Of a DNA stretch of 64,000 nucleotides, positions 2,026 to 52,233 are shown piece after piece; the stretch's first letter is position 1, and every line of letters starts with the position of its first letter. Below the pieces are notes generated by a model. The model was not told the origin of the DNA. It searched no databases and saw only the letters and a program-made list of their open reading frames with translations. The stretch lies in the NCBI GenBank assembly GCA_965276925.1, contig OZ255711.1, forward strand, positions 3,724,652 to 3,788,651. Direction: 5' to 3'. The translations under genes and the position numbers were made by a program. Origin of the DNA: Hanamia sp. Its GTDB lineage: Bacteria > Bacteroidota > Bacteroidia > Chitinophagales > Chitinophagaceae.

Positions 2026-3378
2026 ATGGAACTTCAACCACTTACTGCTATTTCTCCCATTGATGGCCGTTATCGAAATCAACTTACTCGTCTTGATTTG
2101 TATTTTTCAGAATATGCCTTAATAAAATACAGGATAAAAGTTGAAATTGAATATTTTATTTTCTTATCGGAAAAAAAATTTTTTAAGTTAAATACTATCT
2201 CAAAAAAACAATTGATTGCCATCTACGAAAACTTTAGTATTGATGATGCAAAAAAAATAAAAGATACCGAAAGCATTACCAATCATGATGTGAAAGCAGT
2301 TGAATATTTTTTAAAAGAAAAATTAAAAGAGCTTGGCGCTGATGATCTGCAGGAATGGATACATTTTGGCTTAACCTCTCAGGATATAAATAATACCGCC
2401 ATTCCGCTGATGTGGAAGGATGGCGTACAGCAACAATATTTGCCAGCAATAAATGGATTGAAAGATAACCTTGAAAAGCTTGCTGCAGCATGGAAAAATA
2501 TTCCCATACTTGCCAGAACCCACGGCCAGCCTGCATCGCCAACAAAGCTTGGCAAAGAGATCATGGTTTTCGCTGAAAGAATTACTAACCAGCTTGAACA
2601 GTTTAATCACATTCCTTTTACAGGAAAGTTTGGGGGAGCAACGGGAAATTTTAATGCACATTATGTGGCTTATCCAAAGACTGATTGGATCGGTTTTGCC
2701 AATGATTTTCTTGAAAAGAAATTACATATCAGGCGACAGCAACACACCACGCAGATAGAACATTATGATATGCTTGCTGCACATTTTGATGCAATAAAAA
2801 GAATTAATACCATTCTTATTGATCTGTGTCGCGATGTGTGGACCTACATCAGCATGGATTATTTTAAACAGCAAATAAAAAAAGGCGAGACAGGCAGCAG
2901 CGCTATGCCACATAAAATAAATCCTATAGATTTCGAAAATGCAGAAGGCAACCTGGGTCTTGCAAATGCAATGCTGGAGCATCTTTCAGCAAAGCTGCCT
3001 GTTTCACGGCTGCAGCGAGATCTTACAGATTCAACCGTTATAAGAAATATCGGCGTACCATTTGCGCACACTTTCCTTTCTTTTTTTTCAATAAAAAAAG
3101 GTTTGGATAAATTGATATTAAATGAAAATAAAATTAAAGATGACCTTGAGGCTAACTGGGCTGTGGTAGCTGAGGCGATACAAACAATTTTGAGAAGGGA
3201 ACAATATCCAAAACCTTATGAGGCACTGAAAGAACTGACCAGATCAAATGCAACAATAACCAAAGATGCGATCCATAAGTTTATTGACAGATTGAAAATA
3301 TCACCGGAATTAAAAATTGAATTGAAAAAAATAAGCCCGCATAATTATACGGGGACAATATTTAATAATGCTGTTTAA
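2026..3378 (+). CDS. purB: Adenylosuccinate lyase
   Basis: LTAISPIDGRY, TNHDVKAVEY, RTHGQPASPT and the GSSAMPHKINPIDFENAEGN signature. The start is set at MELQP (ATG 2026). Confidence 0.97.
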   Translation: MELQPLTAISPIDGRYRNQLTRLDLYFSEYALIKYRIKVEIEYFIFLSEKKFFKLNTISKKQLIAIYENFSIDDAKKIKDTESITNHDVKAVEYFLKEKLKELGADDLQEWIHFGLTSQDINNTAIPLMWKDGVQQQYLPAINGLKDNLEKLAAAWKNIPILARTHGQPASPTKLGKEIMVFAERITNQLEQFNHIPFTGKFGGATGNFNAHYVAYPKTDWIGFANDFLEKKLHIRRQQHTTQIEHYDMLAAHFDAIKRINTILIDLCRDVWTYISMDYFKQQIKKGETGSSAMPHKINPIDFENAEGNLGLANAMLEHLSAKLPVSRLQRDLTDSTVIRNIGVPFAHTFLSFFSIKKGLDKLILNENKIKDDLEANWAVVAEAIQTILRREQYPKPYEALKELTRSNATITKDAIHKFIDRLKISPELKIELKKISPHNYTGTIFNNAV

Positions 3379-3613
3379 GTTTATAATTTACAATTATTTA
3401 TTCCTTTAAATTATTAAGGGCTTGAATCCCTCCAGAGGGTAAATCTCTATTATATATTCTTATTTCATCGATAACACCATTGAAATAATCCAGGTGACTA
3501 TCCAATTGTTCATAAATATAAAATCAGCAGTACAGAAAAATCAAAATTGTTTACACAGATAATTTATAGGTGATAAATAAATCTTATTGTCGTGCTATTT
3601 CCAAGGTTAGTGT

Positions 3614-4180
3614 TTACTTGGCCTGGTATCTAATAGCTTGACCATGATAATACTTAAGTGCATAGCTATCGTAATAATATTCATCTGTATATATACTACC
3701 ATCCATGTATCTAATGTTTTCCCATGTTATTAAATAAGTTGTCGACAACGGCGAAGAAGTTGTATGAATTAAAAATGTAAGTTTTGTTTTTTCTGGATTA
3801 ACAAATTGCCAATCTACAAGACCATGCAAAGAGTTATTTGCATCCAACAAAGACCCGGTACCATCTGGGTTAAAAGTGTAAGTCTCTATTGAACGGTCTC
3901 CAAAACCGGTAGTGTTATTAGTCCCTCCCTGAAAATAATAGATAGAATCCCCACCATATACAGCACGCAATTCAGTTGTTTTCCATGGAAACGCCGTTAG
4001 TAACTCTTCAGTAAAAGCAGAATCTTTAATTAACACAGTATCCTTAACAGTTAGTGTGTCATTTTTAGTGACTGATACAGTATCAATAATTGTTTTATCT
4101 TTTGTGCAAGAAGTTAACGATGTTGTAATTGACAAAGAAAAAACCAAAATGATTCCTGATAAACTCAATATAGATTTCAT
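3614..4180 (-). CDS. Hypothetical lipoprotein (cargo between purB and its relic copy)
   Basis: MK + hydrophobic stretch + LTSC lipobox, DT-rich linker, beta-rich lipocalin-like remainder. ATG at 4180 is preferred over TTG at 4186. Confidence 0.7.
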   Translation of the reverse strand: MKSILSLSGIILVFSLSITTSLTSCTKDKTIIDTVSVTKNDTLTVKDTVLIKDSAFTEELLTAFPWKTTELRAVYGGDSIYYFQGGTNNTTGFGDRSIETYTFNPDGTGSLLDANNSLHGLVDWQFVNPEKTKLTFLIHTTSSPLSTTYLITWENIRYMDGSIYTDEYYYDSYALKYYHGQAIRYQAK

Positions 4181-4300
4181 AAGCAATTTTTATAAAAATA
4201 GTTTATTAGTTTAAAATTCCTAATTATTTGAAAAAAAATATAAAAGTTTTGAAAAAAATATATGTATGTATTTATAGAGATTTTGAAAAGGGATTATTAT

Positions 4301-4565
4301 TGCTGGAGCATCTTTCGGTGAAACTTTCAAAAAAATTAATGAAGACCTTGATAACAATTGAGTTGTAGTAGCTGAGGCAATTCAAACGATTTTAAGAAGA
4401 GAAAATAATCCTAATCCATATGAAGCATTGAAAGAGCTTACAAGATCTAATTCTGTCATTACAAAAGAAACCATCGTTACTTTTATAGATACTTTAAAAA
4501 TTTCTGATCTTTTAAAAAAGGAAATAAAAAAAATAACCCCGTATAATTATGCAGGTATTTCCTAA
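4301..4565 (+). pseudogene. Degenerate duplicate of the purB 3' end
   Basis: 4301-4316 is identical to purB 2972-2987. After a net 127-nt deletion, 4332-4565 reads KINEDLDNN*VVVAEAIQTILRRENNPNPYEALKELTRSN...ITPYNYAGIS*, 52/75 aa identical to the PurB C-terminus by hand count, with TGG changed to TGA at 4359. Confidence 0.92.
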
Positions 4566-4613
4566 AAATTCTTATATTCATTTTTTATTAGCCAAAACTT
4601 ATAACTGCTTTTT

Positions 4614-5903
4614 ATGAAAAAATTTTACCTGTTTCCTTTATTTATTTTACTTGTTTTGTCTTCTTTTTCGCAAATTAAACTTGATAGTGGTCTGGTTGCA
4701 TACTATCCTTTTAATGGCAATGCTAATGACGAAAGTGGCAATGGCAATAATCCAATTTTTAATAATGCTACTTTAACCAACGATGAACAAGGTAATCCTA
4801 ACAATGCTTATCATTTTAATGGGATTAATAATTATATAGAAATTCCAAATTCAACAAGTATTAATCCTGTAAATCAAATCTCGTTATGTGCCCTTATAAG
4901 ACCAACTGGATTTTATAAAGGCCCGTGCCATGGAAATTCAATAATTATGAAAGGAGATGCAGATTATTTACAGGGAAATTATGCATTACGATTCGATGAT
5001 AATGCTTATACATACGGACAAAATTGTTCCACGAATATTGTTGATACTATTCATCAAAATTTTTATAGTATGAGTGCCCAAACTCCTTCACCAGGTTACA
5101 TGCCTTATATTAATAAAGATCAGTGGTATTGTATCGTTTATACCTATAACGGCTCCCTCGGAAAGTTTTATTTGGACGGAAATCTTATAGATAGTGAGTA
5201 CTCATCTATTACGGGTTTTTCTAATAACTATAATTTATTTTTTGGGAGATTGAATAACTCAACTTTTCCTTATTGGTTAAATGCAGATTTAGATGAGGTA
5301 AGAATCTATAATCGTGCAATCAATAGCCAAGAAGTAACAGCACTTTGTCCTTCTGCTTCACCTTTACCTGTCACGTTAACTAGTTTTGAAACGAATATCT
5401 CTAACAAACAGATAAAATTAAGCTGGCATGTTGAAAATGAGAGTGGTATTGTAAATTATACAATAGAAAGGTCAACATCCACAAGGTCTGATTTTAAAGA
5501 AATCGGGATGGTCAATGCTGATAAAGCATCATCATACACATATATTGATAAAACAGTCTCAATAAATCAGACCTATTACTATAGACTTAAAATTTTAGAG
5601 AATACAAATGCAATCAGTTATTCAGAAATTAACACCGCTTACTTATCTGATAATAATAAAATTGTATTGGTATATCCAAATCCTTCAAAGGGTAATCTGT
5701 CAATTCAAATAAAAGGTTATAGCGGTATAGCGAAGTTGTCTCTTATAAATAGTACAGGTCAAACTGTTTTCTTAAAAGACGAAATTATTTCAAATAATAA
5801 TTTGTTACCAGTTACGTTTCATAATCTTAGTGGTGTATATTGGTTAAAAATTACAACTGGTAGCAACACCTACACACAAAAAGTAATATTTTTAATGAGA
5901 TAA
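4614..5903 (+). CDS. LamG-like jellyroll protein with T9SS type A C-terminal sorting domain
   Basis: Signal peptide, GLVAYYPFNGNAND...LDEVRIYNRA LamG domain, PLPVTLTSF Ig-like module, and a VYPNP...GVYWLKI...YTQKV tail. Confidence 0.88.
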   Translation: MKKFYLFPLFILLVLSSFSQIKLDSGLVAYYPFNGNANDESGNGNNPIFNNATLTNDEQGNPNNAYHFNGINNYIEIPNSTSINPVNQISLCALIRPTGFYKGPCHGNSIIMKGDADYLQGNYALRFDDNAYTYGQNCSTNIVDTIHQNFYSMSAQTPSPGYMPYINKDQWYCIVYTYNGSLGKFYLDGNLIDSEYSSITGFSNNYNLFFGRLNNSTFPYWLNADLDEVRIYNRAINSQEVTALCPSASPLPVTLTSFETNISNKQIKLSWHVENESGIVNYTIERSTSTRSDFKEIGMVNADKASSYTYIDKTVSINQTYYYRLKILENTNAISYSEINTAYLSDNNKIVLVYPNPSKGNLSIQIKGYSGIAKLSLINSTGQTVFLKDEIISNNNLLPVTFHNLSGVYWLKITTGSNTYTQKVIFLMR

Positions 5904-5912
5904 TAATATTCA

Positions 5913-8900
5913 TTGAAGTTCAGTTTATCGCTAACTATCTTACTTCTTTTTTTGCTTAATTCGTACATTGCAAAATCCCAGGTTAATTTAGCCAATGGCC
6001 TTGTTGCGTATTATCCTTTCAACGGGAATGCTAACGATGCCAGCGGCAATGGTAATAATCCAGTATTCAATAATGCAACGCTCACAACTGATAGAATGGG
6101 AAACGCTAATAGTGCTTACCATTTCAATGGTATAGATAATTATATAGAAATTCCCAATTCGCCAAGTATCAATCCTGCAAATCAAATCTCTCTTTGCGTA
6201 TATGTAAGGCCAACAGGTTTTTATTTAGGCCCATGCCACGGAAACTCAATAATAATGAAGGGAGATGCCGATTATTTACCGGGAAATTATGCATTAAGAT
6301 TTGACGATAACGCTTATACCTATGGGAATAATTGTGCAAACAGTATAGTTGATACAGTTCATCAAAATTTTTATGGAGTTACTGCCCAAGCACAGTCGCC
6401 AGGATATTTGCCATATATAAATAAGAATGAATGGTACTGCGTTGTATTTACTTATGACGGTTCATTAGGAAAGTTTTATGTTGATGGAAACCTTACAGAT
6501 AGTGAATATACCTCTGGTCTAACATTTTCTAATGGTTACGATTTATTCTTTGGCAAGCTTAACAATTCGACTTTTCCTTACTGGCTCAATGGCGACTTAG
6601 ATGAAATTAGAGTTTATAACAGAGCCATAAACGATCAGGAAGTTAAGGCTTTGTGTACAACAACATCCGATACTACTGTCATTAACGATTACACTCCTGT
6701 TATTAATTTTAATATTTGCAAAAATCAATTAACCGTTGCAGATGCAACTAAATATAATATCGGTGACACAGTATTATTAATTCAAATGAAAGGTGCAGTA
6801 ATTGATTCAAGTAATACTGCTTCTTTTGGAACAATAACTAATTATAAAAATGCCGGTAATTATGAGTTTAATTACGTAAAACAAAAGATTGGAAATGTTA
6901 TTGACCTTAAGAATACTGTGACACGTCAATATGATATTGCTAATGGAAAAGTTCAGCTAATTAGAGTTCCTTATTTTACAGATTATAACGTTACTAATAC
7001 GCTTTCTTGCTTACCATGGGATGGAAATATAGGGGGCGTTCTGGCATTCAACGTAAAAAATACATTAACCTTAAATGCAGATATAAATGTTACTGGTAAA
7101 GGATTTATAGGAGGCAGAAGCCCAAATACAAATCTAAATGTAGCTAATTGTTATACTGACGGATATTATTTTCCGGTAGGATCAGTATTAGCTGCGGCTA
7201 AAGGTGAATCCATATATGATTTGGGCGATGATAAAAAATTAGGAAAGGCACCAAATGCAACGGGTGGTGGTGGTGGATTGGATCACAACTCTGGTGGTGG
7301 TGGCGGTGGTAATGGAGGCCTTGGTGGGCAGGGCGGTTATCAGGTTTCAGCGTGCGGCGTAGATTTCGATAACGGAGGAAGAGGTGGTAACATTGCTGCT
7401 TATAATAATATTTCAAATAAAATATTTTTAGGAGCTGGCGGTGGATCAGGACATGCAAATGGCCCCAACGGAATTGATATGAACGGAGGAAATGGCGGAG
7501 GAATTATCTTAATAAAAAGCAATACTATAAATTCAAACTCTTACAATATAATCTCAAAAGGAAGTAATGGCCAATACTGTGATTCTACACTATATGTTTG
7601 CAATGATGGCAATGGTGGCGGCGGTTCAGGTGGAACTATTTTAATTGATAATAATATATACTCAAGTAGTGCAAACATAAATATAAGCGGAGGAAAGGGT
7701 GCTGATCTTACAAGTTATCCGTTTGTTACTAATAAAGTTGGTCCTGGAGGAGGAGGAGGAGGCGGTATTATATGGATTAATAATGCATATACACCATCTA
7801 ATTTAGTATTTGTAATAAATGGTGGATTAAATGGAGTTATTCCTTCAGACAATAACAATCCCTACGGCGCCACTCCGGGCCAGCCTGGTCAAACTCTTTT
7901 CAATCTAAAAATTCCATTTGATACAATTCCCTTCAAGTCAAACATAGATTCAGTAAGATTTAAAGATAGTGCTGTAACCTGCAGTAGTTTTGATTTTAAA
8001 GGATTAGGATTTACAAATACGAACGCTATAACTTCGTGGCAATGGAACTTTGGAGATACATCAACTGCCAGCACACAAAACATAAACCATACTTATACAT
8101 CATCAGGATCATACATTGTAAAACTTATAGCTACAGACATAAACGGATGTAAAGACAGCGTTTCAAGACCTCTTACTACTTCATCTTTCAATGTAGCTGT
8201 GAGTAATGATACTGTGACCTGTTTTGGCAACTCAGTTCAGTTAACTGCATCAGGAGGAAACATTTATGCGTGGACACCCGCATCTACTTTAAATAATTCT
8301 TCTACTGGTAATCCTGTTGCTACACCATCATCCACAACTACCTATCATGTACTAATAACCAACTCACTCGGATGCAGTCAATCAGATTCAATAAAAGTCA
8401 CTGTAAATAGTTTACCTGTTATTACTAAATCAAATGATACAAGTGTTTGTAACAATGCATCTGTTCAGTTATCTGCTGGCGGAGGCACCGCTTATTCCTA
8501 GATGCCTGCTTCGTCCTTAAATGATCCAACTATTGCAAACCCGGTTGCCACACCTCCATCTACAACTTTTTATTATGTCACAGTTACTAACAGTAATGGC
8601 TGCGCAAAAAAAGATTCCATAAAAATTAATACAAGCGTACCCGCTGTTATTACAAAGTCTCGTGATGCAGCAATCTGTAAAGGCACATCAGTGCAAATAT
8701 TTGCAAGCGGAGGCGCAAGTTATTCCTGGTCACCAGCTTCCTCATTAAGTAATAGTTCTACTTCAAATCCTGTTGCATCTCCCTCTTCTTCTACTACATA
8801 TTATGTTGCAGTGGATAACGGTTTCGGTTGTACAAAAAAAGATTCAGTAAACGTTTCTATATACCCTGTGCCTGATATAACTATCTCAAATGATACAAGT

Positions 8901-9839
8901 ATTTGCAACAGTAGTTCTGTAAAGCTTTTTGTAGCCGGAGGACGAAGCTACATCTGGTCGCCTTCTTCATCTTTGGATAATCCCGCAAGCCCTACTCCTG
9001 TTGCTTCTCCACTGATAAATACTTTGTATAAAGTAACAGTAACAGATGCTAATTCATGTTCTTTTCAGGATTCTGTAAATATTTCTATAAAGCCTCCAGC
9101 GGTTTTTACAGTTTCTCCTGATGCATCTGTCTGCACACTAACCCCAAAGCAATTGATAGCTGCCGGGGGCGACACTTATCTTTGGTCTCCTTCTGATGGA
9201 CTGAATCAAATCAATATTCCAAATCCCATTGCAACGCCGGATGCTACAACAGTTTATTCTGTTACTATTGTTGAAAGCGTTTGTAACCAAACAGCAACGT
9301 TATCAACTACCCTTACTGCTTTGTCTCTTCCTTCTGTACATGCAACCAGTTCCAATGATCTTACCTGTTCTTTAGGCTCAAGCCAGCTGAATGCATCTGG
9401 TGCTGAAAGTTATACATGGTCTCCATCATCAGGCCTTAATAACAATAATGTTCCAAATCCTGTTGCAACACCTGCCACCACTACCTTATACCATGTATCA
9501 GGAAAAGATAATAATGGATGCACCGATTCAGATACTGTAACCGTTAAAACAGATTACAACATGAACGCTTTGTATCTTTTACCTAATTCTTTTACACCTA
9601 ATGGCGATGGCCTTAATGATTGCTTTGGAGTAAAATACTGGGGAATAGTAAGCGATCTTGAGTTTAGTATTTATAACAGGTTTGGACAAAAAGTTTTCTA
9701 TACAAATAATGCTGCTAAATGCTGGGATGGCACTTACAGGCAACAGCCTCAGGATGCAGATGTTTACGTTTACATCATAACAGCAAAGACTGCCTGCGGG
9801 CTTGTAAACAGAAAAGGAAGCGTTACTTTAATAAGATGA
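5913..9839 (+). pseudogene. Large T9SS surface protein (LamG + Gly-rich + PKD + Ig-like repeats + type B gliding-motility CTD) interrupted by one in-frame TAG
   Basis: ORFs 5913-8501 and 8502-9839 are contiguous and in the same frame. The junction YS*MPASSL matches the repeat consensus Y.W.P.S.L (YAWTPASTL, YSWSPASSL, YTWSPSSGL). It ends LPNSFTPNGDGLND...IYNRFGQKVF...WDG...KGSVTLIR. It could be a pseudogene, a readthrough gene or a sequence error. Confidence 0.75.
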
Positions 9840-9851
9840 TCGTTATAAAAT

Positions 9852-11438
9852 CTATTTATGAATTTCGCTGGTAAAATGAAATTCAATATCAGGATTATTG
9901 GTTCTTTCGGTATTTAAAAACCATTCGCTTTGAGCAAGATATACTATGTGCCCATCCTTATCCTCCGCTATATTAGATGATTTAAATCTTATAAAATCCT
10001 GCAGCTTTTTCGGGTCGTTTGAGGTAAGCCAGCATGCCTTATAATATGGCAATGAGTTTAATTGTACAGAAGCGCTGTATTCATTCAGCAGACGATATTG
10101 TATCACTTCAAACTGAAGCTCGCCCACACAACCAATAATCTTTTTATTGCCCCCAAACTGTGTAAATAATTGAGCCACGCCCTCATCAGTCAATTGCAGC
10201 AAGCCTTTCTCGAGTTGCTTGGTTTTCATGGGATCTTTGTTCACCACTTCCTTAAATATTTCAGGAGAGAAAGACGGTATGCCCGTAAAATAAAAGTCTT
10301 CGCCTTCTGTAAGTGTATCGCCAATTTTAAAATTGCCTGTGTCAAATAAACCCACCACATCTCCCGGAAACGCTGATTCAATTACATCTTTATCTCTTGC
10401 TAAAAAACTATAGGGATTACTGAATCTTACATCTTTATGCAAGCGAACATGATGAAAATATTTGTTGCGCTCAAACTTGCCGGCGCACACTCTAAGGAAT
10501 GCAATTCTATCTCTGTGCCGCGGATCAAGGTTCGCATGAATTTTAAAAACAAACCCGCTGAACTTATCTTCTTCAGGCTCTACAACCCTTGTAGTTACTG
10601 CTCTGTGCTGGGGCAGTGGCGCTATTTGTATAAACGTTTCCAGCAGTTCTTTTACACCAAAATTATTTATAGCACTTCCGAAAAATACGGGAGCTACTTT
10701 TCCTTTTAAATATTCTTCCCGATTAAAATCTCCATAAACACCTTCAATTAATTCCACATCTTCTCTTAATTGCGCAGCATCTTTTTCACCAATTCTTGTT
10801 TGCAAAATCTCATCACTTAAATTGTCCAATGGCAGATAATCTTCTTCAGTCGCTTTCTGATTGGGATTGAACAGCAACAAACTTTTATCATACAAATTAT
10901 ATACTCCTTTAAAATCTCTCCCCATGTTTATAGGCCAGCTTAAAGGATGCAGGCTGATCTTCAATTCTAATTCTATCTCATCTAAAAGATCAAAAGGATT
11001 TTTACCATCGCGGTCAAGTTTATTCACAAACACGATCACCGGCGTATTGCGCATACGGCACACTTCCATCAATCTTCTTGTTTGCTCCTCCACACCTTTT
11101 ACGCAATCTATTACCAGAACTACGCTGTCAACAGCAGTTAAGGTGCGATAGGTATCTTCTGCAAAGTCTTTGTGGCCGGGCGTATCCAGCAGGTTCACCA
11201 AAATATTTTTATACTCAAAGCTCATTACAGATGTAGCAACAGAAATACCGCGTTGCCTTTCTATCTCCATAAAATCTGATGTGGCGTGCTTCTTTATCTT
11301 ATTACTTTTTACTGCACCTGCAGTTTGAATAGCGCCGCCAAATAATAAAAATTTTTCGGTTAATGTGGTCTTTCCTGCATCGGGATGTGAGATGATTGCA
11401 AACGTTCTGCGCTTCTCTATTTCATTCAAATATTTCAT
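9852..11438 (-). CDS. prfC: Peptide chain release factor 3
   Basis: [41 protein letters not shown] and NKLD GTPase motifs. The start is set at MKYLNE. Confidence 0.97.
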
Positions 11439-11446
11439 AAAAGCCG

Positions 11447-11454
11447 CAAAGGTA
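11447..11454 (-). promoter_or_regulatory. Bacteroidota primary-sigma -7 element (TACCTTTG) for prfC
   Basis: Matches TAnnTTTG 8 nt upstream of the ATG. Similar matches precede fsr (25324), higB (28124), the FAD/FeS oxidoreductase (33618), the M16 protease (40519), degT (47990), waaA (48055), sucD (53196) and tRNA-Val (56408). Confidence 0.65.
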
Positions 11455-11500
11455 GCAATCAATTTGACAATTGAGAATTGACAGAACAGACCGAAATGAA

Positions 11501-12268: not shown

Positions 12269-12418
12269 AATTATTAAAGGGATGTTTATAAAAAACGCAT
12301 CAATAATTCATTTATTATTTATAAAAAATAAAATAATTTTCAGGAGAAGCGTATTTCGTCTATATGATAACCGTTACCTTACAGGTGTTATTATATTTTG
12401 TAATACTTGCCTCACCCA

Positions 12419-12931: not shown

Positions 12932-13029
12932 TTACTTAAAGTTATAACATATTCATTTCATTAAGAACAATGAAACGTATGCAGCAGTAATTTTTGATTT
13001 TATTTAACCTTGCAATAAAGTATAGGTAT

Positions 13030-15828: not shown

Positions 15829-15859
15829 TTATAAAATATAAAACTTATAAAATATTTAT

Positions 15860-41501: not shown

Positions 41502-41507
41502 AATTTT

Positions 41508-42068: not shown

Positions 42069-42093
42069 TATAAAAATAAATTGGTTAAAACAA

Positions 42094-43083: not shown

Positions 43084-43093
43084 AAATTTTTTT

Positions 43094-44383
43094 TTATAAA
43101 CTCCAGTATGTTCTTCCCGAGATTTTTCCACGATAAATCCCTTTGATGTCAGCAATCAATGCATCATCTTTTGTTACGCTTTTGAAATAGGTTTCATTCA
43201 TGTTTAAATAAGCAGCGTGAGGAACGGCAACGATCACAGCGTTATAATCATTATCAATATTTTTTGTAAGGCGAAACCCGTATTCATGGTGCAATTCATC
43301 GCTATCTGCGTGAGGATCTGTTACATGAACATTAAGGGAATAATTTTGTAATTCCTTTATTACATCGGCCACTTTAGAATTTCTGATGTCGCTTACGTTT
43401 TCTTTAAAAGTTGCACCCATTACCAGCACTTTAGATTTTTTTATATCACCATTATTTTTAATTATATGCTGCAAAACTTTCTTTGCAACATACGCTGCCA
43501 TTCCATCATTTATTGATCTTCCTGCAAGAATTACCTGCGCATCATAACCCAGTTTATTGGATTTATAAGTAAGATAATACGGATCAACGCCAATGCAGTG
43601 GCCGCCTACAAGCCCAGGCTGAAATCTTAAGAAATTCCATTTGGTGCCGGCAGCTTCCAGCACTTCAAAAGTATTTATGTTCATCTTATCAAAAATTATT
43701 GACAGCTCGTTCATTAAGGCAATGTTCAAATCGCGCTGTGTATTTTCAATGATCTTGGCTGCTTCCGCCACCTTAATAGATGATGCTTTATGCACACCAG
43801 CTTTAACCACTAATTCATATACTTTCGCAATGGTATCAAGACTTTCGGAATCGCATCCGCTCACCACTTTAACAATGCTGCCAAGTGTATGCTCTTTATC
43901 TCCGGGGTTTATTCTTTCGGGTGAGTAGCCCAACTTAAAATCTTTAATAACTTTTAACCCAGATAGTTTTTCTATAACCGGTAAACAATCTTCTTCTGTA
44001 CAGCCAGGATAAACAGTGCTCTCAAACACGACATAATCGCCGTTCTTCAGCACTTTACCAATGGTATCGCTCGCTTTTTGCACCGGAACAAGATCAGGAA
44101 TATTGTTGCTATCAACAGGAGTGGGCACGGCAACAATAAAAAAATTTGCCTGTTTTAAAATATCAAGACTGTTCGTAAATTCTATATCGCAATCCTTAAA
44201 GTCATCGGCTTTCAGCTCTTTGCTCGGGTCAATGCCTTTCTTCATTAGCTCAACTCTTTCTGCATTTATGTCAAAGCCAATTACAGAAATCTTTTTAGCA
44301 AATGCTAACGCAATAGGCAGCCCAACATAGCCAAGGCCAATAACTGCCAGCTTCTTTTTTTTTTCAATTAATTCAGTGTACAT
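43094..44383 (-). CDS. UDP-HexNAc 6-dehydrogenase, WbpO/TviB-like
   Basis: IGLGYVGLP, ESTVYPG.TE, YSPERINPGD, ENTQRD and GGHCIGVDPYY. Confidence 0.9.
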   Translation of the reverse strand: MYTELIEKKKKLAVIGLGYVGLPIALAFAKKISVIGFDINAERVELMKKGIDPSKELKADDFKDCDIEFTNSLDILKQANFFIVAVPTPVDSNNIPDLVPVQKASDTIGKVLKNGDYVVFESTVYPGCTEEDCLPVIEKLSGLKVIKDFKLGYSPERINPGDKEHTLGSIVKVVSGCDSESLDTIAKVYELVVKAGVHKASSIKVAEAAKIIENTQRDLNIALMNELSIIFDKMNINTFEVLEAAGTKWNFLRFQPGLVGGHCIGVDPYYLTYKSNKLGYDAQVILAGRSINDGMAAYVAKKVLQHIIKNNGDIKKSKVLVMGATFKENVSDIRNSKVADVIKELQNYSLNVHVTDPHADSDELHHEYGFRLTKNIDNDYNAVIVAVPHAAYLNMNETYFKSVTKDDALIADIKGIYRGKISGRTYWSL

Positions 44384-44432
44384 ACATTTTTATTGCGTTT
44401 CATTTAAGTAATAAAATCATCAATTCACCTGC

Positions 44433-45416
44433 TCATCTTTTACTTTCAAATTCTTTGGGAAGCTTAAATAGATCTTCCCGCGGCAAAGATTTGAAATAAT
44501 CATAAGTTATCTTCAAACCTTCTGCCCTATCCACTTTTGGCTCCCAGTTTAAGAGTTCTTTTGCCTTGGTGATATCCGGCTGGCGTTGCTTTGGATCATC
44601 CTGTGGTAATGGCTTATACACAATTTTTTGCTTTGTGCCTGTAAGTAAAATTATTTCTTCTGCAAAATCTTTCAATGAGATTTCTGTTGGGTTTCCAATG
44701 TTTACCGGCATTGAATAATCACTTAGTAATAATTTATAAATGCCCTCAATGAGATCATCTACATAACAAAAGCTTCTGGTTTGCGAGCCGTCGCCAAATA
44801 CAGTTAAGTCTTCACCGCGCAAAGCCTGCCCAATGAAAGCCGGCAAAGCCCTGCCATCATTTAGCCTCATGCGCGGGCCGTATGTATTAAATATTCTTAC
44901 AATTCTTGTTTCTAACCCATGAAAAGTATGATAAGCTGTTACAATCGCTTCCTGGAAACGCTTTGCTTCATCATACACGCCTCTTGGTCCTATCGGATTC
45001 ACATTCCCCCAATAATCTTCCTTTTGCGGATGTATCAAAGGATCTCCATATACCTCACTTGTTGAGGCAACCAGTATTCTTGCCTTCTTGGAAAGCGCAA
45101 GGCCAAGACAGTTGTGGGTTCCAAGCGAACCAACCTTTAATGTTTGTATAGGAATTTTTAAATAATCAATCGGGCTTGCAGGCGATGCAAAATGTAAAAT
45201 ATAATCGAGCCGCCCGGAAACATGAATAAATTTTGATACATCGCAATTATAAAATTCAAAGTTCTTTAGCTTAAATAAATGCTGAATATTTTTAAGATCA
45301 CCGGTTATAAGATTATCCATACCTATAACCTGCATACCTTCTGCAATGAATTTATCGCAAAGATGAGAACCCAGAAAACCTGCGGCACCTGTTATAAGAA
45401 TCCTTTTATCTGACAT
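44433..45416 (-). CDS. UDP-glucuronic acid decarboxylase family (UDP-xylose synthase)
   Basis: [30 protein letters not shown] and [10 protein letters not shown]. Confidence 0.9.
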
Positions 45417-45492
45417 TAGTTATGATTGCTGTTACTGATTATTATATTGTCTGTTGCCCTTTTGTCCATCGTCAATTTTCAATTGCCCAATA

Positions 45493-46836
45493 CTATTTCC
45501 GAACCGCTCCTCTACCCACACTTTCATAATGAAATCCTTTCTCTTTCATCTGATATAATTCAAAAAGATTTCTTCCATCAAAGATCACTTTGCTTTTCAT
45601 CAGCGAAATCATCTTATTAAAATCTGGCGTTCTGAATTCGCTCCATTCGGTCGCAATAACCAACGCATCTGCATCATTCAGTGCATCATACTGGTTTTCT
45701 GCATAACTGATAACATCGCCTATTTGCCTTTTTACATTCGTCATGGCTTCCGGGTCAAAAGCAGTTACCGATGCTCCGGCTTTTATTAATTCATCAATAA
45801 TTTTTAAAGCAGGCGCTTCTCTTATGTCATCTGTATTTGGCTTAAAAGCAAGGCCCCATAAGGCTATGCGCTTTCCTTTTACATCGTTATTAAAGTAAGA
45901 AAATATTTTTGGCAATAAATGCACTTTTTGTTTTTCATTCACCTGCATTACGGCTTCCAGTATTTTAAAATCATAATCTGCATCTTTTGCAGACCTGGCA
46001 AGCGCCTGCACATCTTTCGGAAAACAGCTTCCGCCATAGCCAATGCCGGGAAATAAAAAACGCTTGCCAATGCGGTCATCACTGCCAATACCTCTGCGTA
46101 CCATATCCACATCCGCGCCCAGCTTTTCACAGAGCAGGGCTATTTCATTCATAAAAGAAATCTTTGCGGCAAGAAAAGCGTTAGCCGCATATTTGGTAAG
46201 CTCAGCCGATCTTTCATCCATATAAATTACAGGATTGCCCTGCCTTACAAATGGCGCATATAATTCTCCAAGCAGTTTTTTTGCCTTATCAGAATCAGTG
46301 CCAATGACCACGCGGTTAGGCTTCATAAAATCTTCAACCGCCACACCTTCCCGCAAAAATTCAGGGTTGCTTGCTACATCAAAAAGAGCTTCAGGATTTT
46401 CTATATTTCTTTTTTGCAAAGCTTGTATAACCGTATCATGCACACGAAGAGCGGTGCCTACAGGAACCGTGCTTTTATCAATGATGATCTTATAATCGTT
46501 TGGCTGCAGCAGGGCGCCAATGTCTTTTGCCACGCCCAGCACATATTGCAGGTCAGCGCTTCCATCTTCTGCAGGTGGTGTGGGCAATGCAAGAAAAATG
46601 ATCTGCGCATCTTTTATTCCTTCTTTAAGAGATGTGGTAAACCGCAAACGCTGTTCTTTTTCATTTCTCTCAAACAGTTTTTCAAGGCCGGGCTCGTATA
46701 TGGTTATTTTACCGGATGATAAGCTTTTTACTTTGCTTTCATCAATATCCACGCAGGTTACAAGGTTTCCGGTTTCGGCAAAGCAGGTTCCTGTTACAAG
46801 GCCTACATAGCCTGTTCCTATTACTGAAATGTTCAT
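45493..46836 (-). CDS. ugd: UDP-glucose 6-dehydrogenase
   Basis: IGTGYVGL, KSTVPVGT, SNPEFLREG, GYGGSCFPKD and FKPNTDDIREAP. Confidence 0.95.
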   Translation of the reverse strand: MNISVIGTGYVGLVTGTCFAETGNLVTCVDIDESKVKSLSSGKITIYEPGLEKLFERNEKEQRLRFTTSLKEGIKDAQIIFLALPTPPAEDGSADLQYVLGVAKDIGALLQPNDYKIIIDKSTVPVGTALRVHDTVIQALQKRNIENPEALFDVASNPEFLREGVAVEDFMKPNRVVIGTDSDKAKKLLGELYAPFVRQGNPVIYMDERSAELTKYAANAFLAAKISFMNEIALLCEKLGADVDMVRRGIGSDDRIGKRFLFPGIGYGGSCFPKDVQALARSAKDADYDFKILEAVMQVNEKQKVHLLPKIFSYFNNDVKGKRIALWGLAFKPNTDDIREAPALKIIDELIKAGASVTAFDPEAMTNVKRQIGDVISYAENQYDALNDADALVIATEWSEFRTPDFNKMISLMKSKVIFDGRNLFELYQMKEKGFHYESVGRGAVRK

Positions 46837-46838
46837 TT

Positions 46839-47969
46839 TTATTTATTAATAAATTCAATTACTTTTTCTGTTATAAAATTCAATTGTTCATTGTCAAGCT
46901 CAGTATGCATGGGCAAAGAAATTACTCTTTCGGTAAGCCAATCTGTTTTTTCAAGATTAAAATTATTGCCACCGAATGATGCAAACATTTTTTGCTTATG
47001 TGCCGGTACAGGATAATAAAGCATAGAAGGTATATCGTTTTTTGCTAAAAAATTTACAAGCCCGTTCCTGTCGGTGTTTTCAAGTATTAATGTGTATTGA
47101 TGAAAAACATGTTTACAATATGGAGCCCTGAAAGGTGTCGTGATCTTTGCATTTCCTGCAAAAGCCTTATCATAAAAATCAGCAGCCTTTCTGCGGGCGT
47201 CAATATAGCGGTCTAATAACGGTAACTTAATATTTAATATTGCCGCCTGAATTGCATCCAGCCTGGAATTGCATCCTACTACGTCATGATAATACTTTTC
47301 GCTTTGCCCATGATTAGCAATCATTTTTATTTTGGCAGCCAGCGCATCGTCATTGGTAAAAATGGCTCCTCCATCTCCATAGCAGCCAAGGTTTTTACTG
47401 GGGAAAAAAGAAGTACAGCCAATGGTACCAATGCTTCCGGCCTTTTTTATGTTGCCATCTTTATATACATAATCGCCACCAATAGATTGCGCAGCATCTT
47501 CAATTACATATAAATTATTTTCTTCTGCAATGGCCATTATTGCCTCCATATCCGCTGACTGACCATATAAATGTACAGGTACTATTGCCTTGGTTTTTGG
47601 CGTAATAGCTTTTTTTATCGCATCGGGGTCTACACAAAATGTTTGTGTATCTACCTCTACAAAAACTGGTTTTAATTTTAATAAAGCAATAACTTCTGTA
47701 GTAGCCACATAAGTAAATGAAGGGGTAATTACCTCATCGCCCGGTTGCAGATCAAGCGCCATCATAGCGATCTGCAGAGCATCAGTGCCATTGGCACAAG
47801 GTATCACATGCTTTACGCCAACATACTCAGATAAATTTTTTGCAAACGCTGAAACCTGCGGCCCGCCTATGAACACAGCGCTTTCTATTACCTCTTTCAC
47901 TGCAGCGTCTATTTCATTTTTTATTTTAAAATACTGCTGCTTCAGGTCCACCATTTGTATAGGAATCAT
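46839..47969 (-). CDS. DegT/DnrJ/EryC1/StrS PLP-dependent sugar aminotransferase
   Basis: NGTDAL, PVHLYGQ, EDAAQ, SFFPSKNLGCYGDGG and NSRLD. Confidence 0.93.
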   Translation of the reverse strand: MIPIQMVDLKQQYFKIKNEIDAAVKEVIESAVFIGGPQVSAFAKNLSEYVGVKHVIPCANGTDALQIAMMALDLQPGDEVITPSFTYVATTEVIALLKLKPVFVEVDTQTFCVDPDAIKKAITPKTKAIVPVHLYGQSADMEAIMAIAEENNLYVIEDAAQSIGGDYVYKDGNIKKAGSIGTIGCTSFFPSKNLGCYGDGGAIFTNDDALAAKIKMIANHGQSEKYYHDVVGCNSRLDAIQAAILNIKLPLLDRYIDARRKAADFYDKAFAGNAKITTPFRAPYCKHVFHQYTLILENTDRNGLVNFLAKNDIPSMLYYPVPAHKQKMFASFGGNNFNLEKTDWLTERVISLPMHTELDNEQLNFITEKVIEFINK

Positions 47970-48079
47970 AACTTTTATTTTAAAAGCGGCAAAGATAACA
48001 ATTGAAAAGACAAAGTGAATAGCGGTATTGTAATGAAAATTTATTTATAAGAAATAGATTTGCCCCCAAATAAAAAGCA

Positions 48080-49354
48080 TTGATTATACTGTATAGAATT
48101 TTTCTTTTTGCGTATGCTTTGGGTATCCGCATCGTTTCTTATTGGAATAAAAAAGCAGCCCTTTGGATTAGCGGAAGAAAAAATTTTTTTGAAAACCTGC
48201 CTTCATCATTTGGTAATGACAACCAAAAAAAAATATGGATGCATTGCGCAAGCCTTGGCGAGTTTGAACAAGGCAGACCTGTATTGAAAAAGATCATTGA
48301 ATCTTATCCTGGTATAAATATTATCATTACTTTTTTTTCGCCATCTGGCTATGAAATAATAAAAAGTAATAAAGAGTTTAAAAACGTTTTTTACCTGCCG
48401 GCAGATAGCGCTTCCAATGCAAAAAAGCTGATCGCTGTTTTTAAACCAAGCCTCGTGCTTTGGGTAAAATATGAATACTGGTATTTTTATTTAAAAGAAA
48501 TACAACACCAAAATATACCTCTCTTAATGATATCCGGCATGTATGAAAAGAGCCAGCCTTTTTTTAAATGGTATGGAAATTTTTATAAAAAAATGCTTGA
48601 CAGCTTTACACATTTTTTTGTTCAAAATGTTTCCTCACAGCAACTGCTGCAAAAATTAGTTGCTTCGCAAAAGATCACCATTTCAGGCGATACCCGATGC
48701 GACCGGGTTATCAGCATTTCAGAAAATATTACAGAAGTTGATGGCATTGCATCTTTTTGCGATGGTAAAAAAACTATAGTGTGTGGCAGCACCTGGGAAG
48801 ACGATGAAGCAGAATGGATACACTTTGTAAAAACGCATCCTGAAATAAAATTTATTATTGCTCCGCATGAAATAGATCAGGAAAACCTGGATGATGTAAA
48901 GAAGCAATTTTCCGGCGCGTTGTTTTACTCAGAATGGATACAACGTTTGCAGCATAACAGTTATGCCTCAAACGATTCTACATGCAACTGCCTGATCATT
49001 GATAATATTGGAATGCTTTCCCGCCTGTACTACTATGCTTCTGTAACGTACGTTGGTGGCGGCTTTGGCTACAAAGGCCTTCACAACATTCTTGAAGCTG
49101 CAGTATATGGCAAGCCGGTCATCTTCGGGCCTGAATATGAAAAAAACTTTGAAGCTGAAGAACTGATTGATTGTGGAGGAGGCATTAGCATAGAAAATGC
49201 GCTGGAGCTGGAAAAGATTGTAAATGAGTTATTGAATGATCAGGAAATGCTATCAACGAAAGGCAACGCCGCTAAAAATTATGTATATAAAAATGCAGGT
49301 GCTTCGCAAAAAATAATATCTTTTATTCAGGAAAACCGCCTTCTCACCAGCTGA
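48080..49354 (+). CDS. waaA: 3-deoxy-D-manno-octulosonic acid transferase
   Basis: WMHCASLGE, TFFSPSG, GDTR.DR, GSTW, IAPHE and HNILEAAVYG. TTG start. Confidence 0.92.
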   Translation: MIILYRIFLFAYALGIRIVSYWNKKAALWISGRKNFFENLPSSFGNDNQKKIWMHCASLGEFEQGRPVLKKIIESYPGINIIITFFSPSGYEIIKSNKEFKNVFYLPADSASNAKKLIAVFKPSLVLWVKYEYWYFYLKEIQHQNIPLLMISGMYEKSQPFFKWYGNFYKKMLDSFTHFFVQNVSSQQLLQKLVASQKITISGDTRCDRVISISENITEVDGIASFCDGKKTIVCGSTWEDDEAEWIHFVKTHPEIKFIIAPHEIDQENLDDVKKQFSGALFYSEWIQRLQHNSYASNDSTCNCLIIDNIGMLSRLYYYASVTYVGGGFGYKGLHNILEAAVYGKPVIFGPEYEKNFEAEELIDCGGGISIENALELEKIVNELLNDQEMLSTKGNAAKNYVYKNAGASQKIISFIQENRLLTS

Positions 49355-50070
49355 TCAAATTGCTTTACAACAGGATCATTATCCAGCCATCCTATTTTTA
49401 TTTTCAGTTCTCTTCTTATCCAGTATTCAGCTTCAGCAAATATGGAAAAATTTTGGATGGTTTTTATGCTTCGCTCGTACATGGCTTCATCTCCACGAAA
49501 AAGTTCGTTGATAAATAAAAAACGATCATTAATGCCTATAGCTCTTTTAAGATCCTTTATGGGCGCATCTGTCAGCTTTTCCGAGAGCTCAATGCGCACT
49601 TCTTTCAGTCGGTCGTTCAGAGATTCCGGGTAAGTGAATGGCGGTTCTTTTTTTGGCTCTTCAGGGTCTTCTTTGGGCGTCTGGTGGGTAAGCGTGGGCA
49701 CTTCTTCCACCGGGTCGTAATAGAACGGTGGCCTGGCATGCGTGCCCATAGAATTAATAGCTTCAGCATTACGCTTTATTTGATCCAGCTCTTCTTCTAT
49801 TGCCTTTTCATCTACCTGCAAAACTTCAATAATTTTTTCTTCAGCAGGAATAGTATTTATTTGCTCAGCCTCTTTTTTATTATTATTAAATGATTGAAAA
49901 GAAGACGGTAAAATAACAGAAACATTATTCTGCAATGCAGGCTGATCCTGAGCTTGCTGGCTCTGCAGCTCCGACTGAAGCATTTGTACGGTATGCAAAA
50001 GTATGGATGCGGATGCTTTATCATCCAATTGTTGTTGCAATTTTTTTATGAGAGTTGAGACTCTTTCCAT
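49327..50070 (-). CDS. Hypothetical protein with conserved-looking C-terminal domain
   Basis: IKDLKRAIGINDRFLFINELFRGD...W...FDQLVRRRF. It overlaps the waaA 3' end by 28 nt. Confidence 0.8.
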   Translation of the reverse strand: MERVSTLIKKLQQQLDDKASASILLHTVQMLQSELQSQQAQDQPALQNNVSVILPSSFQSFNNNKKEAEQINTIPAEEKIIEVLQVDEKAIEEELDQIKRNAEAINSMGTHARPPFYYDPVEEVPTLTHQTPKEDPEEPKKEPPFTYPESLNDRLKEVRIELSEKLTDAPIKDLKRAIGINDRFLFINELFRGDEAMYERSIKTIQNFSIFAEAEYWIRRELKIKIGWLDNDPVVKQFDQLVRRRFS

Positions 50071-50202
50071 GTAAAATATATGCGCTTGCGTCTGGATCTT
50101 TTTTGCAGGAAATGAAATGTTTGTTTTTGTATTAACCTAAAATCATTTTAACCTTGCAGTGAGGGCTAAGATACAAATTGATATGAAAATGAAATATAAA
50201 AA

Positions 50203-50778
50203 ATGTTTATAGAACCCAATTTCAGAGGAGAGCGGCGCGGATGGATAGAAGTTATTTGCGGCAGCATGTTCAGCGGAAAAACTGAAGAACTGATACGAAG
50301 GCTGAAGCGCGTAAAGATTGCAAATCTGAAAGCTGAAATTTTTAAGCCTTCTGTGGATAAAAGGTATGATGAAATAAAAATTGTAAGCCATGATGAAAAT
50401 AAAATACAATCAACACCGGTGGATGATTCACAAAAAATTTTATTGCTGGCAAAAGATGTGGATGTGGTGGGCATTGATGAAGCGCAGTTTTTTGATGAAA
50501 AAATCACAACGGTGTGCGAGGAACTTGCAACAAATGGCATCAGGGTAATTGTGGCCGGGCTTGACATGGATTATAAAGGCAATCCTTTCGGGGAAATGCC
50601 CAAACTGCTTTCCATTGCCGATTACATAACCAAGCTTCATGCGATATGTGTAAAGTGCGGAAACATCGCTAATATAAGTTATCGAAAGGTTACAATGGAG
50701 GCGCAGGTGTTGGTAGGCGAAAAAGATTTGTATGAGCCGCGATGCCGCATCTGCGCAGCTTTAGGAGATGCTCTATAA
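50203..50778 (+). CDS. tdk: Thymidine kinase
   Basis: [29 protein letters not shown], zinc Cys pairs and YEPRCR. Confidence 0.96.
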
Positions 50779-50800
50779 ATAATAGTGATTAATATAAACC

Positions 50801-51457
50801 ATGAGCAACCCTGTTTTCACTTTATTAAAAAAAGACTTATTGCTTGAGTTAAGGCAGCAATATGTTTTTTATGGAATATTACTTTATGTGGCCTCCACCA
50901 TTTTTGTTTTATATCTCGCCATGAGCCAGCCCGAAGGCGCAGTGTACAATGGTCTTTTTTGGATGATACAATTGTTTGTTTGCATCAATGCGGTAGCCAA
51001 AAGTTTTTTACAGGAAAGCAGAGGAAGAATGTTATATTATTTTACCATCGCAAGCCCGGTAAGCTTCATTGTTGCGAAGCTTATTTATAACACCCTTGTA
51101 ATGCTGCTGATGGTAATACTTAGCCTGTTACTTTTCAGAATATTATTAGGTAACCCTGTAAATGATTATGTAAAATTTATTGGCATTGCTTGTCTGGGCG
51201 GCATCAGCTTAAGTCTTGTTTTTACTTTGATGGCCGCTATTGCCGCTAAGGCGCAGCAGAATGCAGCAGTGATGGCTATACTTGGTTTTCCGCTAATTAT
51301 ACCTCAATTATTATTATTAATAAGGCTATCAAAATCTGCATTTGGCGAGGCTTTCAGAGGAGGTGCTTTAATGCAGATCACACTTTTATTAATTGCTTTG
51401 GATGTGTTGGTTATTGTATTGGCTATTGTGCTGTTTCCCTTTTTGTGGAAGGATTGA
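50801..51457 (+). CDS. ccmB: Heme exporter protein CcmB
   Basis: LLKKDLLLE start, 6 TM segments, LMAAIAAKA, ILGFPLIIP and LFPFLWKD. Confidence 0.8.
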   Translation: MSNPVFTLLKKDLLLELRQQYVFYGILLYVASTIFVLYLAMSQPEGAVYNGLFWMIQLFVCINAVAKSFLQESRGRMLYYFTIASPVSFIVAKLIYNTLVMLLMVILSLLLFRILLGNPVNDYVKFIGIACLGGISLSLVFTLMAAIAAKAQQNAAVMAILGFPLIIPQLLLLIRLSKSAFGEAFRGGALMQITLLLIALDVLVIVLAIVLFPFLWKD

Positions 51458-51498
51458 AAAGTAAGTTCCTGATTGTTTTGCAAGAATACTATCTCAAT

Positions 51499-52179
51499 CT
51501 ATTTTGCAATAATTACTGTTCCTCCGGAATCTGGTAAGGGTAAATAATTAATTTTTTGTTCCATACAAAATTGTTCCACCGCTTTTCGTGAACCTTTATA
51601 ATTATCATTATTAAAGTCATGAATAAAGATGTAACCGCCGGAAACTAATTTTGGATAAAAAAAAACCAAGCCGTTGTAAATTGGTTCATATAAATCTGCA
51701 TCAATACTCACAAACACAAAAGCTGATCGGATATTTTTCGCAGATTCCGGAAAAAAACCCTTTACGGGTATACATTTTTCAACATATGGCATCAATTTAA
51801 GAACTGCTTCTACAGAAGTATTTGAAAAGTCTTGTTCTCCGGAAGAGAATTTATTTTCTTTTTCAGTGATGATATCCTTATTATCAAAACCTTCAAAAGT
51901 ATCAAAAAGGTATAATGAACGTGTTGGGAAATACTGGTTAATATATCTTGCAAACTTTCCCTTATATACTCCCAATTCCGCAACATCTCCATCAAGTTTT
52001 TTTTGGTAAATCTCCTGGCTTATCAGCTCAAGTGTTGCAAGGCGTATATAGTCAAAATAATTTCTATCTATTTTTCTTTCCCGATTATAATAGCTCAGAG
52101 AGTTTCCTATAAAAACCTTTTTTTTATGAAATGCTTTCCCAAAAAAGAAATTCATACCCTTGCCAAATACTTCTATCAT
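51499..52179 (-). CDS. TylF/MycF/NovP-family O-methyltransferase
   Basis: GDVAELGVYKG, LYLFDTFEGF, KGFFPES, SIDADLYEP and GGYIFIHDF. Confidence 0.9.
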   Translation of the reverse strand: MIEVFGKGMNFFFGKAFHKKKVFIGNSLSYYNRERKIDRNYFDYIRLATLELISQEIYQKKLDGDVAELGVYKGKFARYINQYFPTRSLYLFDTFEGFDNKDIITEKENKFSSGEQDFSNTSVEAVLKLMPYVEKCIPVKGFFPESAKNIRSAFVFVSIDADLYEPIYNGLVFFYPKLVSGGYIFIHDFNNDNYKGSRKAVEQFCMEQKINYLPLPDSGGTVIIAK

Positions 52180-52203
52180 AAATATGAAATAGCAGTTAAA
52201 TCA

Positions 52204-52233
52204 ATTGTACTGTTTCCTTTTGTATGGAAAGGT
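52204..52233 (+). repeat. Diverged direct repeat of the last 10 codons of ccmB (51425-51454)
   Basis: ATTGTACTGTTTCCTTTTGTATGGAAAGGT versus ATTGTGCTGTTTCCCTTTTTGTGGAAGGAT: 24/30 nt, IVLFPFVWKG versus IVLFPFLWKD. Confidence 0.75.

Follow-up and report, generated by a model that had tools for sequence, protein, structure and literature searches.

The window analysed here is a 64,000-nucleotide stretch of Hanamia sp. DNA (G000:C1:3724652–3788651), lying within a complete genome of 3.82 Mb that is called G000 below. Two loci in the window, at the genes purB and ccmB, share one layout. An intact host gene on the plus strand is followed by an antisense cargo gene, and a dead copy of the host gene's 3′ end, here called the relic, lies upstream of the cargo start codon. 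A sequence-only reading of the window had described this arrangement and proposed an integrase-free route of gene capture by replacement of host gene 3′ ends; the layout is real at both loci. The window was also correctly described as free of recombinases, with no match anywhere in it to PF00589, PF00239, PF00665 or PF01797 (profiles for tyrosine recombinases, serine recombinases, the rve transposase and the Y1 transposase, respectively).

Gene purB encodes adenylosuccinate lyase and is intact (1996–3378, plus strand; Pfam Lyase_1 and ASL_C). It exhibits 74–78% identity to purB of genus relatives, with alignments starting at residue 10–11, and the real start is probably the ATG at 2026. Cargo 1 (3614–4186, minus strand) is a lipoprotein gene, a 190-residue open reading frame (ORF) without a Pfam match. 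The purB relic (4273–4565, plus strand), identified by DNA and protein alignment to live purB, starts ~87 nt upstream of the cargo-1 start codon and consists of two pieces. Piece A (~4273–4331) matches purB codons ~305–335. Piece B (4332–4565) resumes at codon 379 after an internal deletion and runs to the stop, with its own TAA, and the codon for W387 has changed from TGG to TGA. The segment 4332–4556 displays 69% protein identity to live purB over 72–75 residues (per-gene local tblastn, E 1e-28, referring to a 12-kb local search space), and the DNA is ~72% identical to the live tail over 245 nt. In live purB the duplicated part, as aligned to the relic, extends from codon ~306 to the stop (2917–3378, plus strand).

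Origin of the purB relic

Aligned over 63 codons, relic and live tail of G000 show a nonsynonymous divergence (dN) of 0.196, a synonymous divergence (dS) of 1.71 and an omega of 0.11. The baseline was taken from live purB tails of 16 genus members, where the 57 between-species orthologue pairs give a median dN of 0.21, dS of 1.83 and omega of 0.11. Because the divergence of the two tails within G000 equals that of between-species orthologues, one of them must have worked in another lineage. Their differences number 12, 8 and 33 at codon positions 1, 2 and 3. The omega of 0.11 with saturated dS, together with this codon-position bias, rules out two other origins of the relic. Decay in place after a duplication in situ would change all three codon positions similarly, and a recent conversion by the resident live tail would yield a copy with low dS. 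The substitution pattern shows the relic to be a displaced, once-functional, xenologous tail with saturated dS and not a local duplicate, which bears out the 3′-end replacement put forward by the sequence-only reading. The live segment 2917–3378, or at least its 3′ portion, would then have been imported as the replacement; a nearest-neighbour comparison over 189 nt gives identities too noisy to tell the native from the imported tail.

We gathered ~15 loci with cargo 1 and scored the state of the relic in 14 of them, the remaining contigs being too short to judge. Cargo 1 is found in 4 of 127 genus genomes. The relic is present just upstream of the cargo-1 start in 8 of the ~15 loci (G000, L148, G015, L129, L130, L149, L150 and L151), and cargo 1 occurs without it in six (G112, G331, L132, L152, L154 and L155), often directly behind prfC. 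In L150 the relic is uninterrupted and covers codons 307–414. Since this relic is unbroken, the original duplication can be placed at ~465 nt, beginning at the motif KxNPIDFEN (codon ~306), just past the lyase signature loop. The ~465-nt repeat is single-copy in most genus genomes. The 5′ start of the relic is identical, at purB codon ~306, in G000, G015, L149, L150 and L151. The internal deletions of the G000 and G015 relics are unlike each other and are secondary.

Retention of the relic for a function, either as the promoter or 5′ region of the cargo or as a small ASL_C-like protein, is very improbable. It would be consistent with the ~67 codons still in frame in G000, G015, L129 and L130, with the low omega between relics, and with the mere 23 nt between relic and cargo start at ccmB. 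However, no start codon of the relic is conserved; the L129 frame is preceded by a TGA, the possible starts vary by genome, and so do the frameshifts and internal deletions. The relic as a conserved small ORF was rejected on the missing conserved start and the differing frameshifts. The sequence-only reading had suggested that the relic is retained for the cargo promoter. At purB this finds no support: six loci have cargo 1 but no relic, and conserved instead is a cassette-specific upstream stretch of 235 nt. The Bacteroidota −7 box TAnnTTTG was not found upstream of any of the three cargos (the third is described below) in a motif scan that is itself uninformative.

Mosaic blocks and breakpoints around purB

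The mosaic structure of the locus is clearest between the metagenome contigs L129 and L130. Their identity is 77% in mqnA and 81–84% in purB codons 12–385. It rises to 94% in the live purB tail, is 94% in cargo 1 and 95–99% in the 235 nt upstream of cargo 1, and falls to 79% in the relic, past which the two contigs are unrelated. The homologous cargo-upstream DNA of G000, which moves with the cassette, is 4187–4272 (minus strand). A block of ~1 kb, comprising the tail, the cargo and the cargo-upstream DNA, is common to backgrounds of species-level divergence. By codon positions 1/2/3, the differences between L129 and L130 are 11/4/27 in the relics and 7/0/7 in the live tails. The relics have thus diverged in a coding-like manner beyond the live tails, indicating that they were renewed from functional tails after the hosts split.

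The contigs L149, L150 and L151, all from one ENA sample (ERZ25039483), show a similar block. They are 99–100% identical from purB nt ~900, across cargo 1, to the first ~65 nt of the relic, and mqnA is 67–76% identical between L149 and L150. Along the relic the identity of these two drops in steps (94, 82, 73–76 and 68%) and is followed by unrelated DNA. Among all three contigs the relic tails are 68–82% identical and the downstream genes differ. L151 combines a left flank as in L149 with a relic start as in L150. Between G000 and L148, a close relative in which both cargos are 98% identical to those of G000, identity jumps from 60–88% to 97–100% at purB nt ~300.

The left breakpoints within purB are therefore at nt ~300, ~900 and ~1165 in three pairs, a spread of ~850 nt, and the right breakpoints are inside the relic in two independent contig pairs. 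The scatter of the left ends within purB means that there is no fixed attachment (att) site. Exchange is seen between the two copies of one locus as well. A stretch of ~150 nt in the L150 relic is identical to its own live copy, and an 80-nt core is near-identical between both copies within L129 and likewise within L130. These stretches of 80–150 nt are gene-conversion tracts, with the two purB copies converting each other. An integrase acting site-specifically would not yield the observed breakpoint pattern.

In the fetched flanks, no recombinase stands beside the purB unit in any of the ~15 loci. The purB–prfC intervals of 12 relatives gave no match to the 14 integrases of G000, an IS3 transposase or a RAYT, and the called genes around 8 further cargo-1 loci contain no integrase. 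Because the breakpoints vary, the conversion tracts are long and a recombinase is absent, host homologous recombination is the preferred explanation. We put the probability at roughly 0.6 that the two loci of the window are scars of one type of event, and that the purB unit was spread by homologous recombination of the host without a recombinase. Dependence on RecA, as well as the route of DNA entry, is something that we infer. As to uptake by natural transformation, the G000 genome encodes a ComEC homologue, of a family that is near-universal.

In an event of this type, a short foreign DNA with its own copy of a conserved gene end and one antisense gene would recombine into the resident gene. 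The gene would now finish in the imported tail, and the resident tail would be left dead behind the cargo. In the purB unit the order is tail, lipoprotein gene, its upstream DNA, and relic. Incoming DNA could therefore pair with purB on its left side, while its relic would pair with the purB tail of the recipient on the right. Either a double crossover or a single crossover of a circle excised between the repeats would bring the cargo into a naive genome irrespective of the downstream DNA, and every insertion would leave the recipient's native tail as a fresh relic. The founding duplication would have been an illegitimate or a Campbell-type event.

The relic may moreover be a working part of a recombinase-free mobile unit and not a mere scar, a possibility that we hold tentatively and at somewhat below even odds. 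With a copy of the 3′ region of a single-copy gene at either end, a cassette is equipped with both of the arms needed to recombine with that gene. Such portable homology arms would allow homing by RecA only into any naive genome with the gene, whatever its neighbours, and each homing would make a new relic from the recipient's tail, so that the design would be self-perpetuating.

The ccmB locus and other cases in the genome

The ccmB-like gene for a heme exporter permease is intact (50801–51457, plus strand; Pfam CcmB), and its last ~11 codons (51425–51457, plus strand) are the part that aligns to the relic. Cargo 2 (51499–52179, minus strand) encodes a TylF/MycF-type O-methyltransferase dependent on S-adenosylmethionine (SAM) (Pfam TylF, 1e-16). 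Its 23 nt of upstream DNA (52180–52202, minus strand) are common to the cargo-2 loci of G011, G373, G422 and G237. The native ccmB tail relic of 43 nt follows (52203–52245, plus strand), 23–24 nt from the cargo-2 start; mutation has removed the original stop, and its reading frame closes instead at the TGA in 52243–52245. Next to it are the native ccmB–sucD spacer (52246–52298) and sucD (52299–53177, minus strand), collinear with empty-site relatives.

The ccmB relic matches the live tail at 29/38 nt and 9/14 residues (local E 0.002), the two reading IVLFPFVWKG and IVLFPFLWKD, respectively; at the level of this score alone ~5 chance matches are expected genome-wide. Empty ccmB–sucD sites, with the genes converging 12–116 nt apart, occur in at least 14 genus genomes. 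The segment 52204–52328 aligns collinearly with these relatives through the ccmB tail, the spacer and the end of sucD, and against G423 the ccmB tail and first spacer bases match at 38/46. The degenerate ccmB-tail motif TTYCCNTTYNTNTGGAA occurs twice in G000 and its near-identical relative L157 only, and once in 36 other ccmB loci. The collinearity with empty sites and the doubling of TTYCCNTTYNTNTGGAA lead us to accept the relic as real. L157 (2874–3000, aligned with window 52180–52298) has this ccmB relic too; it differs at one position and is directly followed by an additional tandem copy of 8 nt, GTGAAAAT.

The cargo-2 methyltransferase gene lies between ccmB and sucD without a relic in at least eight genomes or contigs (G011, G373, G422, G237, L159 and L161–L163). 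Cargo-2-type methyltransferases also occur in other contexts, once directly behind a LamG gene. The ccmB locus is thus a single scar in one lineage, where a process of the purB type is likely. The idea that incoming DNA was anchored by a homologous gene tail fits purB, where the unit moved between ~80%-identical lineages with breakpoints of the recombination type, and is only consistent with ccmB.

For further cases, the last 80 residues of each ORF of G000 were searched against 6 kb on either side and against the entire genome. One more small case emerged. A DUF488 gene (genome 960764–961318, plus strand) is followed by an antisense radical-SAM/DUF4130 gene pair and then by a 95-nt relic that matches at 76/95 nt, with the stop codon in register, around a 2.1-kb insert. 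The radical-SAM/DUF4130 pair sits elsewhere in relatives, where direct repeats around it are only short ones at chance level (seven relatives), and the DUF488 relic is confined to the G000 lineage. Like ccmB, this is a scar in one lineage for which the purB-type process is likely.

The small cases total three in 3.8 Mb. The sequence-only reading had taken two cases in 64 kb as a hint of a general mechanism in the lineage; that extrapolation does not hold, with one more small case in the 3.82-Mb genome and no clear enrichment of same-strand downstream relics over control categories in the genome-wide scan. Further cases thus do exist in the genome, and the route is not a frequent one. The cargos are antisense in all three, a number too small for a test of orientation, and no junction motif is shared among the purB, ccmB and DUF488 loci.

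These counts bear on a different reading, in which the three loci are unrelated one-off accidents, arising from illegitimate joins (perhaps facilitated by homology) during an import or from insertions with long target duplication and inherited vertically. The relic would then have no role, the unit would not be mobile, and the mosaics would stem from a recombination-rich region. We regard this as unlikely, although it agrees with the restriction of the ccmB and DUF488 relics to the G000 lineage, with the lack of a clear genome-wide excess of relics over controls, with the general hotspot of variable LamG and type IX secretion system (T9SS) genes between purB and prfC, and with the frequent position of cargo 1 directly after prfC without a relic. 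It does not account for the relics of L129/L130 and L149/L150, which are far more diverged than the cargo block and in a coding-type pattern, pointing to renewal from functional tails more than once. Nor would it explain why, in two independent pairs, the block held in common terminates on its right within the relic.

Two larger elements of G000 resemble the small units. Behind an OprB-like porin gene (1711929–1713272 in the genome; 1711929–1722459 for the whole) is a 9-kb island that ends in a copy of the last 80 codons of the porin gene, in two pieces with 94% and 73% protein identity. Its contents are small hypothetical genes, an IS3 copy that is one of 8 identical ones in the genome, and a RAYT-like gene; there is no integrase among them. 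The other is a 55-kb integrative element of the mobilisable type (genome 1567120–1623742) in the 3′ end of a membrane acyltransferase-like gene (1622570–1623742, minus strand), with a tyrosine integrase (1620775–1622106) and Mob-like genes. At its far end lies the displaced, frameshifted native tail of ~75 codons (~1567120–1567330, 72% protein identity). Because this integrase element shares the geometry, the layout alone is not diagnostic of integrase independence.

It is accordingly conceivable that the small units descend from integrase elements of the e14 or phage 21 type, as remnants or as cis-mobilisable derivatives, and were inserted or moved by a tyrosine recombinase encoded elsewhere, with the integrase module later lost. 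The shared geometry, the 14 PF00589 recombinases of the genome, and the constant 5′ boundary of the relic at purB codon ~306, inside the conserved lyase signature, are in its favor. Yet the relatives and contigs examined showed no integrase at the purB, ccmB and DUF488 sites or close to them, and neither a related integrative and conjugative element (ICE) nor an att core was seen at these sites in relatives. In particular, no intact integrase island of which the purB or ccmB unit could be the eroded form, an alternative raised by the sequence-only reading, was seen at the two sites in relatives. Left exchange breakpoints spread over ~850 nt, conversion tracts of 80–150 nt, far beyond an integrase overlap region, and three loci without a common junction motif also speak against this origin, which we consider improbable.

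Some other observations from the genome scan are recorded here. A TonB-like match 51 kb apart (2942371 and 2890633) was judged a paralogue fragment. The RAYT/IS200-like Y1 transposase genes at genome 3132784–3134620 and 3189456–3192044 have partial N- and C-terminal duplicates nearby (100% over 21 residues and 86% over 51 residues). A short motif that matches the C-terminus of the ORF at 3211119–3211838 is repeated four times in intergenic DNA close by, much as repetitive extragenic palindromes are.

The order mqnA–purB is kept across the genus, and a variable interval of 0.5 to ~8 kb extends from purB to prfC. It contains genes for LamG, PKD and T9SS-tail proteins, nothing, or cargo 1. In the window, a dead C-terminal fragment of the LamG type (Laminin_G_3; 3398–3505, minus strand), recognized from its ORF translation, lies between purB and cargo 1; it resembles the LamG proteins at 4614–5903 and 5913–8501 and occurs once in the genome. 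From the relic to prfC runs a variable block of secreted LamG/PKD/T9SS-tail proteins (4614–9839, plus strand; Pfam), which is present, absent or different in relatives. The conserved right flank is prfC, encoding release factor 3 (9852–11462, minus strand; 89–94% identical in relatives, with Pfam GTP_EFTU and RF3_C on the homologue). A search for repeated DNA revealed no second copy of the intergenic junction segments within the genome, so that repeated DNA or DNA like miniature inverted-repeat transposable elements at the junctions is ruled out.

The product of cargo 1 has 188–190 residues, with a signal peptide, an invariant Cys27, a disordered linker of low confidence and a small beta-barrel. 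The AlphaFold2 model (predicted local distance difference test score 78) has an 8–9-strand barrel, and its fold matches are weak (E at least 0.013) and are lipocalin-, avidin- and TbpB-handle-like. The model makes a lipocalin-like lipoprotein the best description. The family is small, with 43 proteins among 5.8 billion. Cargo 2 is of the TylF/MycF/NovP type and belongs to a large family with 1443 relatives at E≤1e-60, and the third cargo, behind DUF488, is a widespread pair. Both cargos of the window had been called surface-related, which suits the lipoprotein and is unproven for the methyltransferase.

Dead C-terminal LamG fragments (FNGVIDEIRIYNR) are seen beside both cargos, behind purB in G000 (3398–3505, minus strand) and upstream of the methyltransferase in three relatives, at L058 (G373), L057 (G011) and L062 (G237). 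In L160 the methyltransferase comes directly after a LamG gene that is intact. Cargos 1 and 2 may have travelled with LamG genes. Directly behind purB in G007 (G007:C26:214771–214938; L123 18269–18436) is a fragment resembling the cargo-2 methyltransferase, with 54% identity over residues 7–62, and in L152 a TylF gene adjoins mqnA. The cargo at the purB site may vary from species to species. Two stop-riddled, near full-length second copies of purB, each with 5–8 TGA plus TAA codons, were found at G007:C23:18562–19897 and G011:C2:31993–33334; they could be pseudogenes, bin contamination or recoded DNA.

Known systems and biological meaning

Several points weigh against the spread of the purB unit by host recombination. 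Neither an excised circle nor a sister strain with the site empty was seen, and no transfer was observed experimentally. The shared blocks could reflect allelic exchange among genomes that already carried the unit and not new insertions. The metagenome contigs with the identical block may partly be chimeric paths, in which case the shared block itself would remain. The core repeats of L129 and L130 bear host-specific variants in both copies, so a one-step model fits them only with conversion added. The 55-kb integrase element of the same genome shows the same geometry as the small units, and the 14 tyrosine recombinases (PF00589) could act in trans. At ccmB, the relic is confined to the G000 lineage and absent from all other methyltransferase loci examined, and its 30–43 nt are close to the lower limit for RecA pairing.

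The nearest described case is insertion with long target duplication, in which inserts free of mobility genes lie between direct repeats of >30 bp (46–420 bp) (Nobusato et al. 2000; Furuta, Abe & Kobayashi 2010, PMC2853133). The repeats are single-copy in the empty-site genome, some of them over a gene 3′ end, and the species are mostly naturally competent; the cargo consists of restriction-modification genes between near-identical repeats, for which no mechanism was settled on (PMC2853133). The present loci are similar in the 38–43-nt repeat at ccmB with its empty sites in at least 14 genomes, in the ~465-nt repeat at purB, in inserts of <20 kb, and in the absence of a mobility gene in or beside the purB and ccmB inserts. 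They differ in that the purB copies are 72% identical (dS 1.7, omega 0.11) and the ccmB copies match at 29/38, and in their cargos, which encode a lipoprotein, a methyltransferase and, at DUF488, a DNA-repair pair. Distinct from long target duplication are thus the xenologous copies and the breakpoints that point to homologous recombination.

In E. coli, the elements e14 and phage 21 bring diverged last codons to icd and leave the native tail as a pseudogene at the far end, using their own integrase and a fixed core. At purB and ccmB, too, an imported tail completes the target gene, and the native tail has ended up on the far side of the insert. Unlike e14 at icd, the purB and ccmB units have no recombinase, and the purB breakpoints vary with no single fixed short core. 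Cis-mobilisable elements (CIMEs) are small integrase-free derivatives of ICEs with att-like direct repeats at a gene 3′ end, and depend on the integrase of a related ICE. The purB, ccmB and DUF488 sites differ from them in that no related ICE or att core is seen there.

The minimal mobile elements of Neisseria, attributed to Saunders and Snyder (2002), are reportedly alternative cassettes between conserved flanks, devoid of mobility genes and exchanged by homologous recombination of imported DNA. Similarly, the purB–prfC content differs between fixed flanks, the ccmB–sucD interval is empty or occupied, and the breakpoints of the purB unit are in homologous flanking sequence. A minimal mobile element has a different flanking gene as each of its arms, whereas the right arm of the purB unit can be the displaced copy of the left gene's tail. 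Since the right arm is a copy of the left gene's own tail, insertion at purB would be independent of the variable downstream context.

Small accessory genes without a neighbouring mobility gene are usually taken as immobile or left unexplained. The comparisons here give direct evidence that a 1-kb unit, equipped with a spare end of an essential gene, passes from species to species via host recombination alone. If the relic is indeed a portable homology arm, the purB unit would represent a widespread, barely described class of gene mobility. The geometry by itself can not tell integrase-free cassettes from integrase elements, and this should be borne in mind when such layouts are met. Mobility of this kind would account for single genes reaching the same spot in different genomes, and for the diverged, still coding-like dead gene ends behind housekeeping genes. 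A displaced gene tail would thereby be a practical marker for recent imports in genomes and metagenomes.

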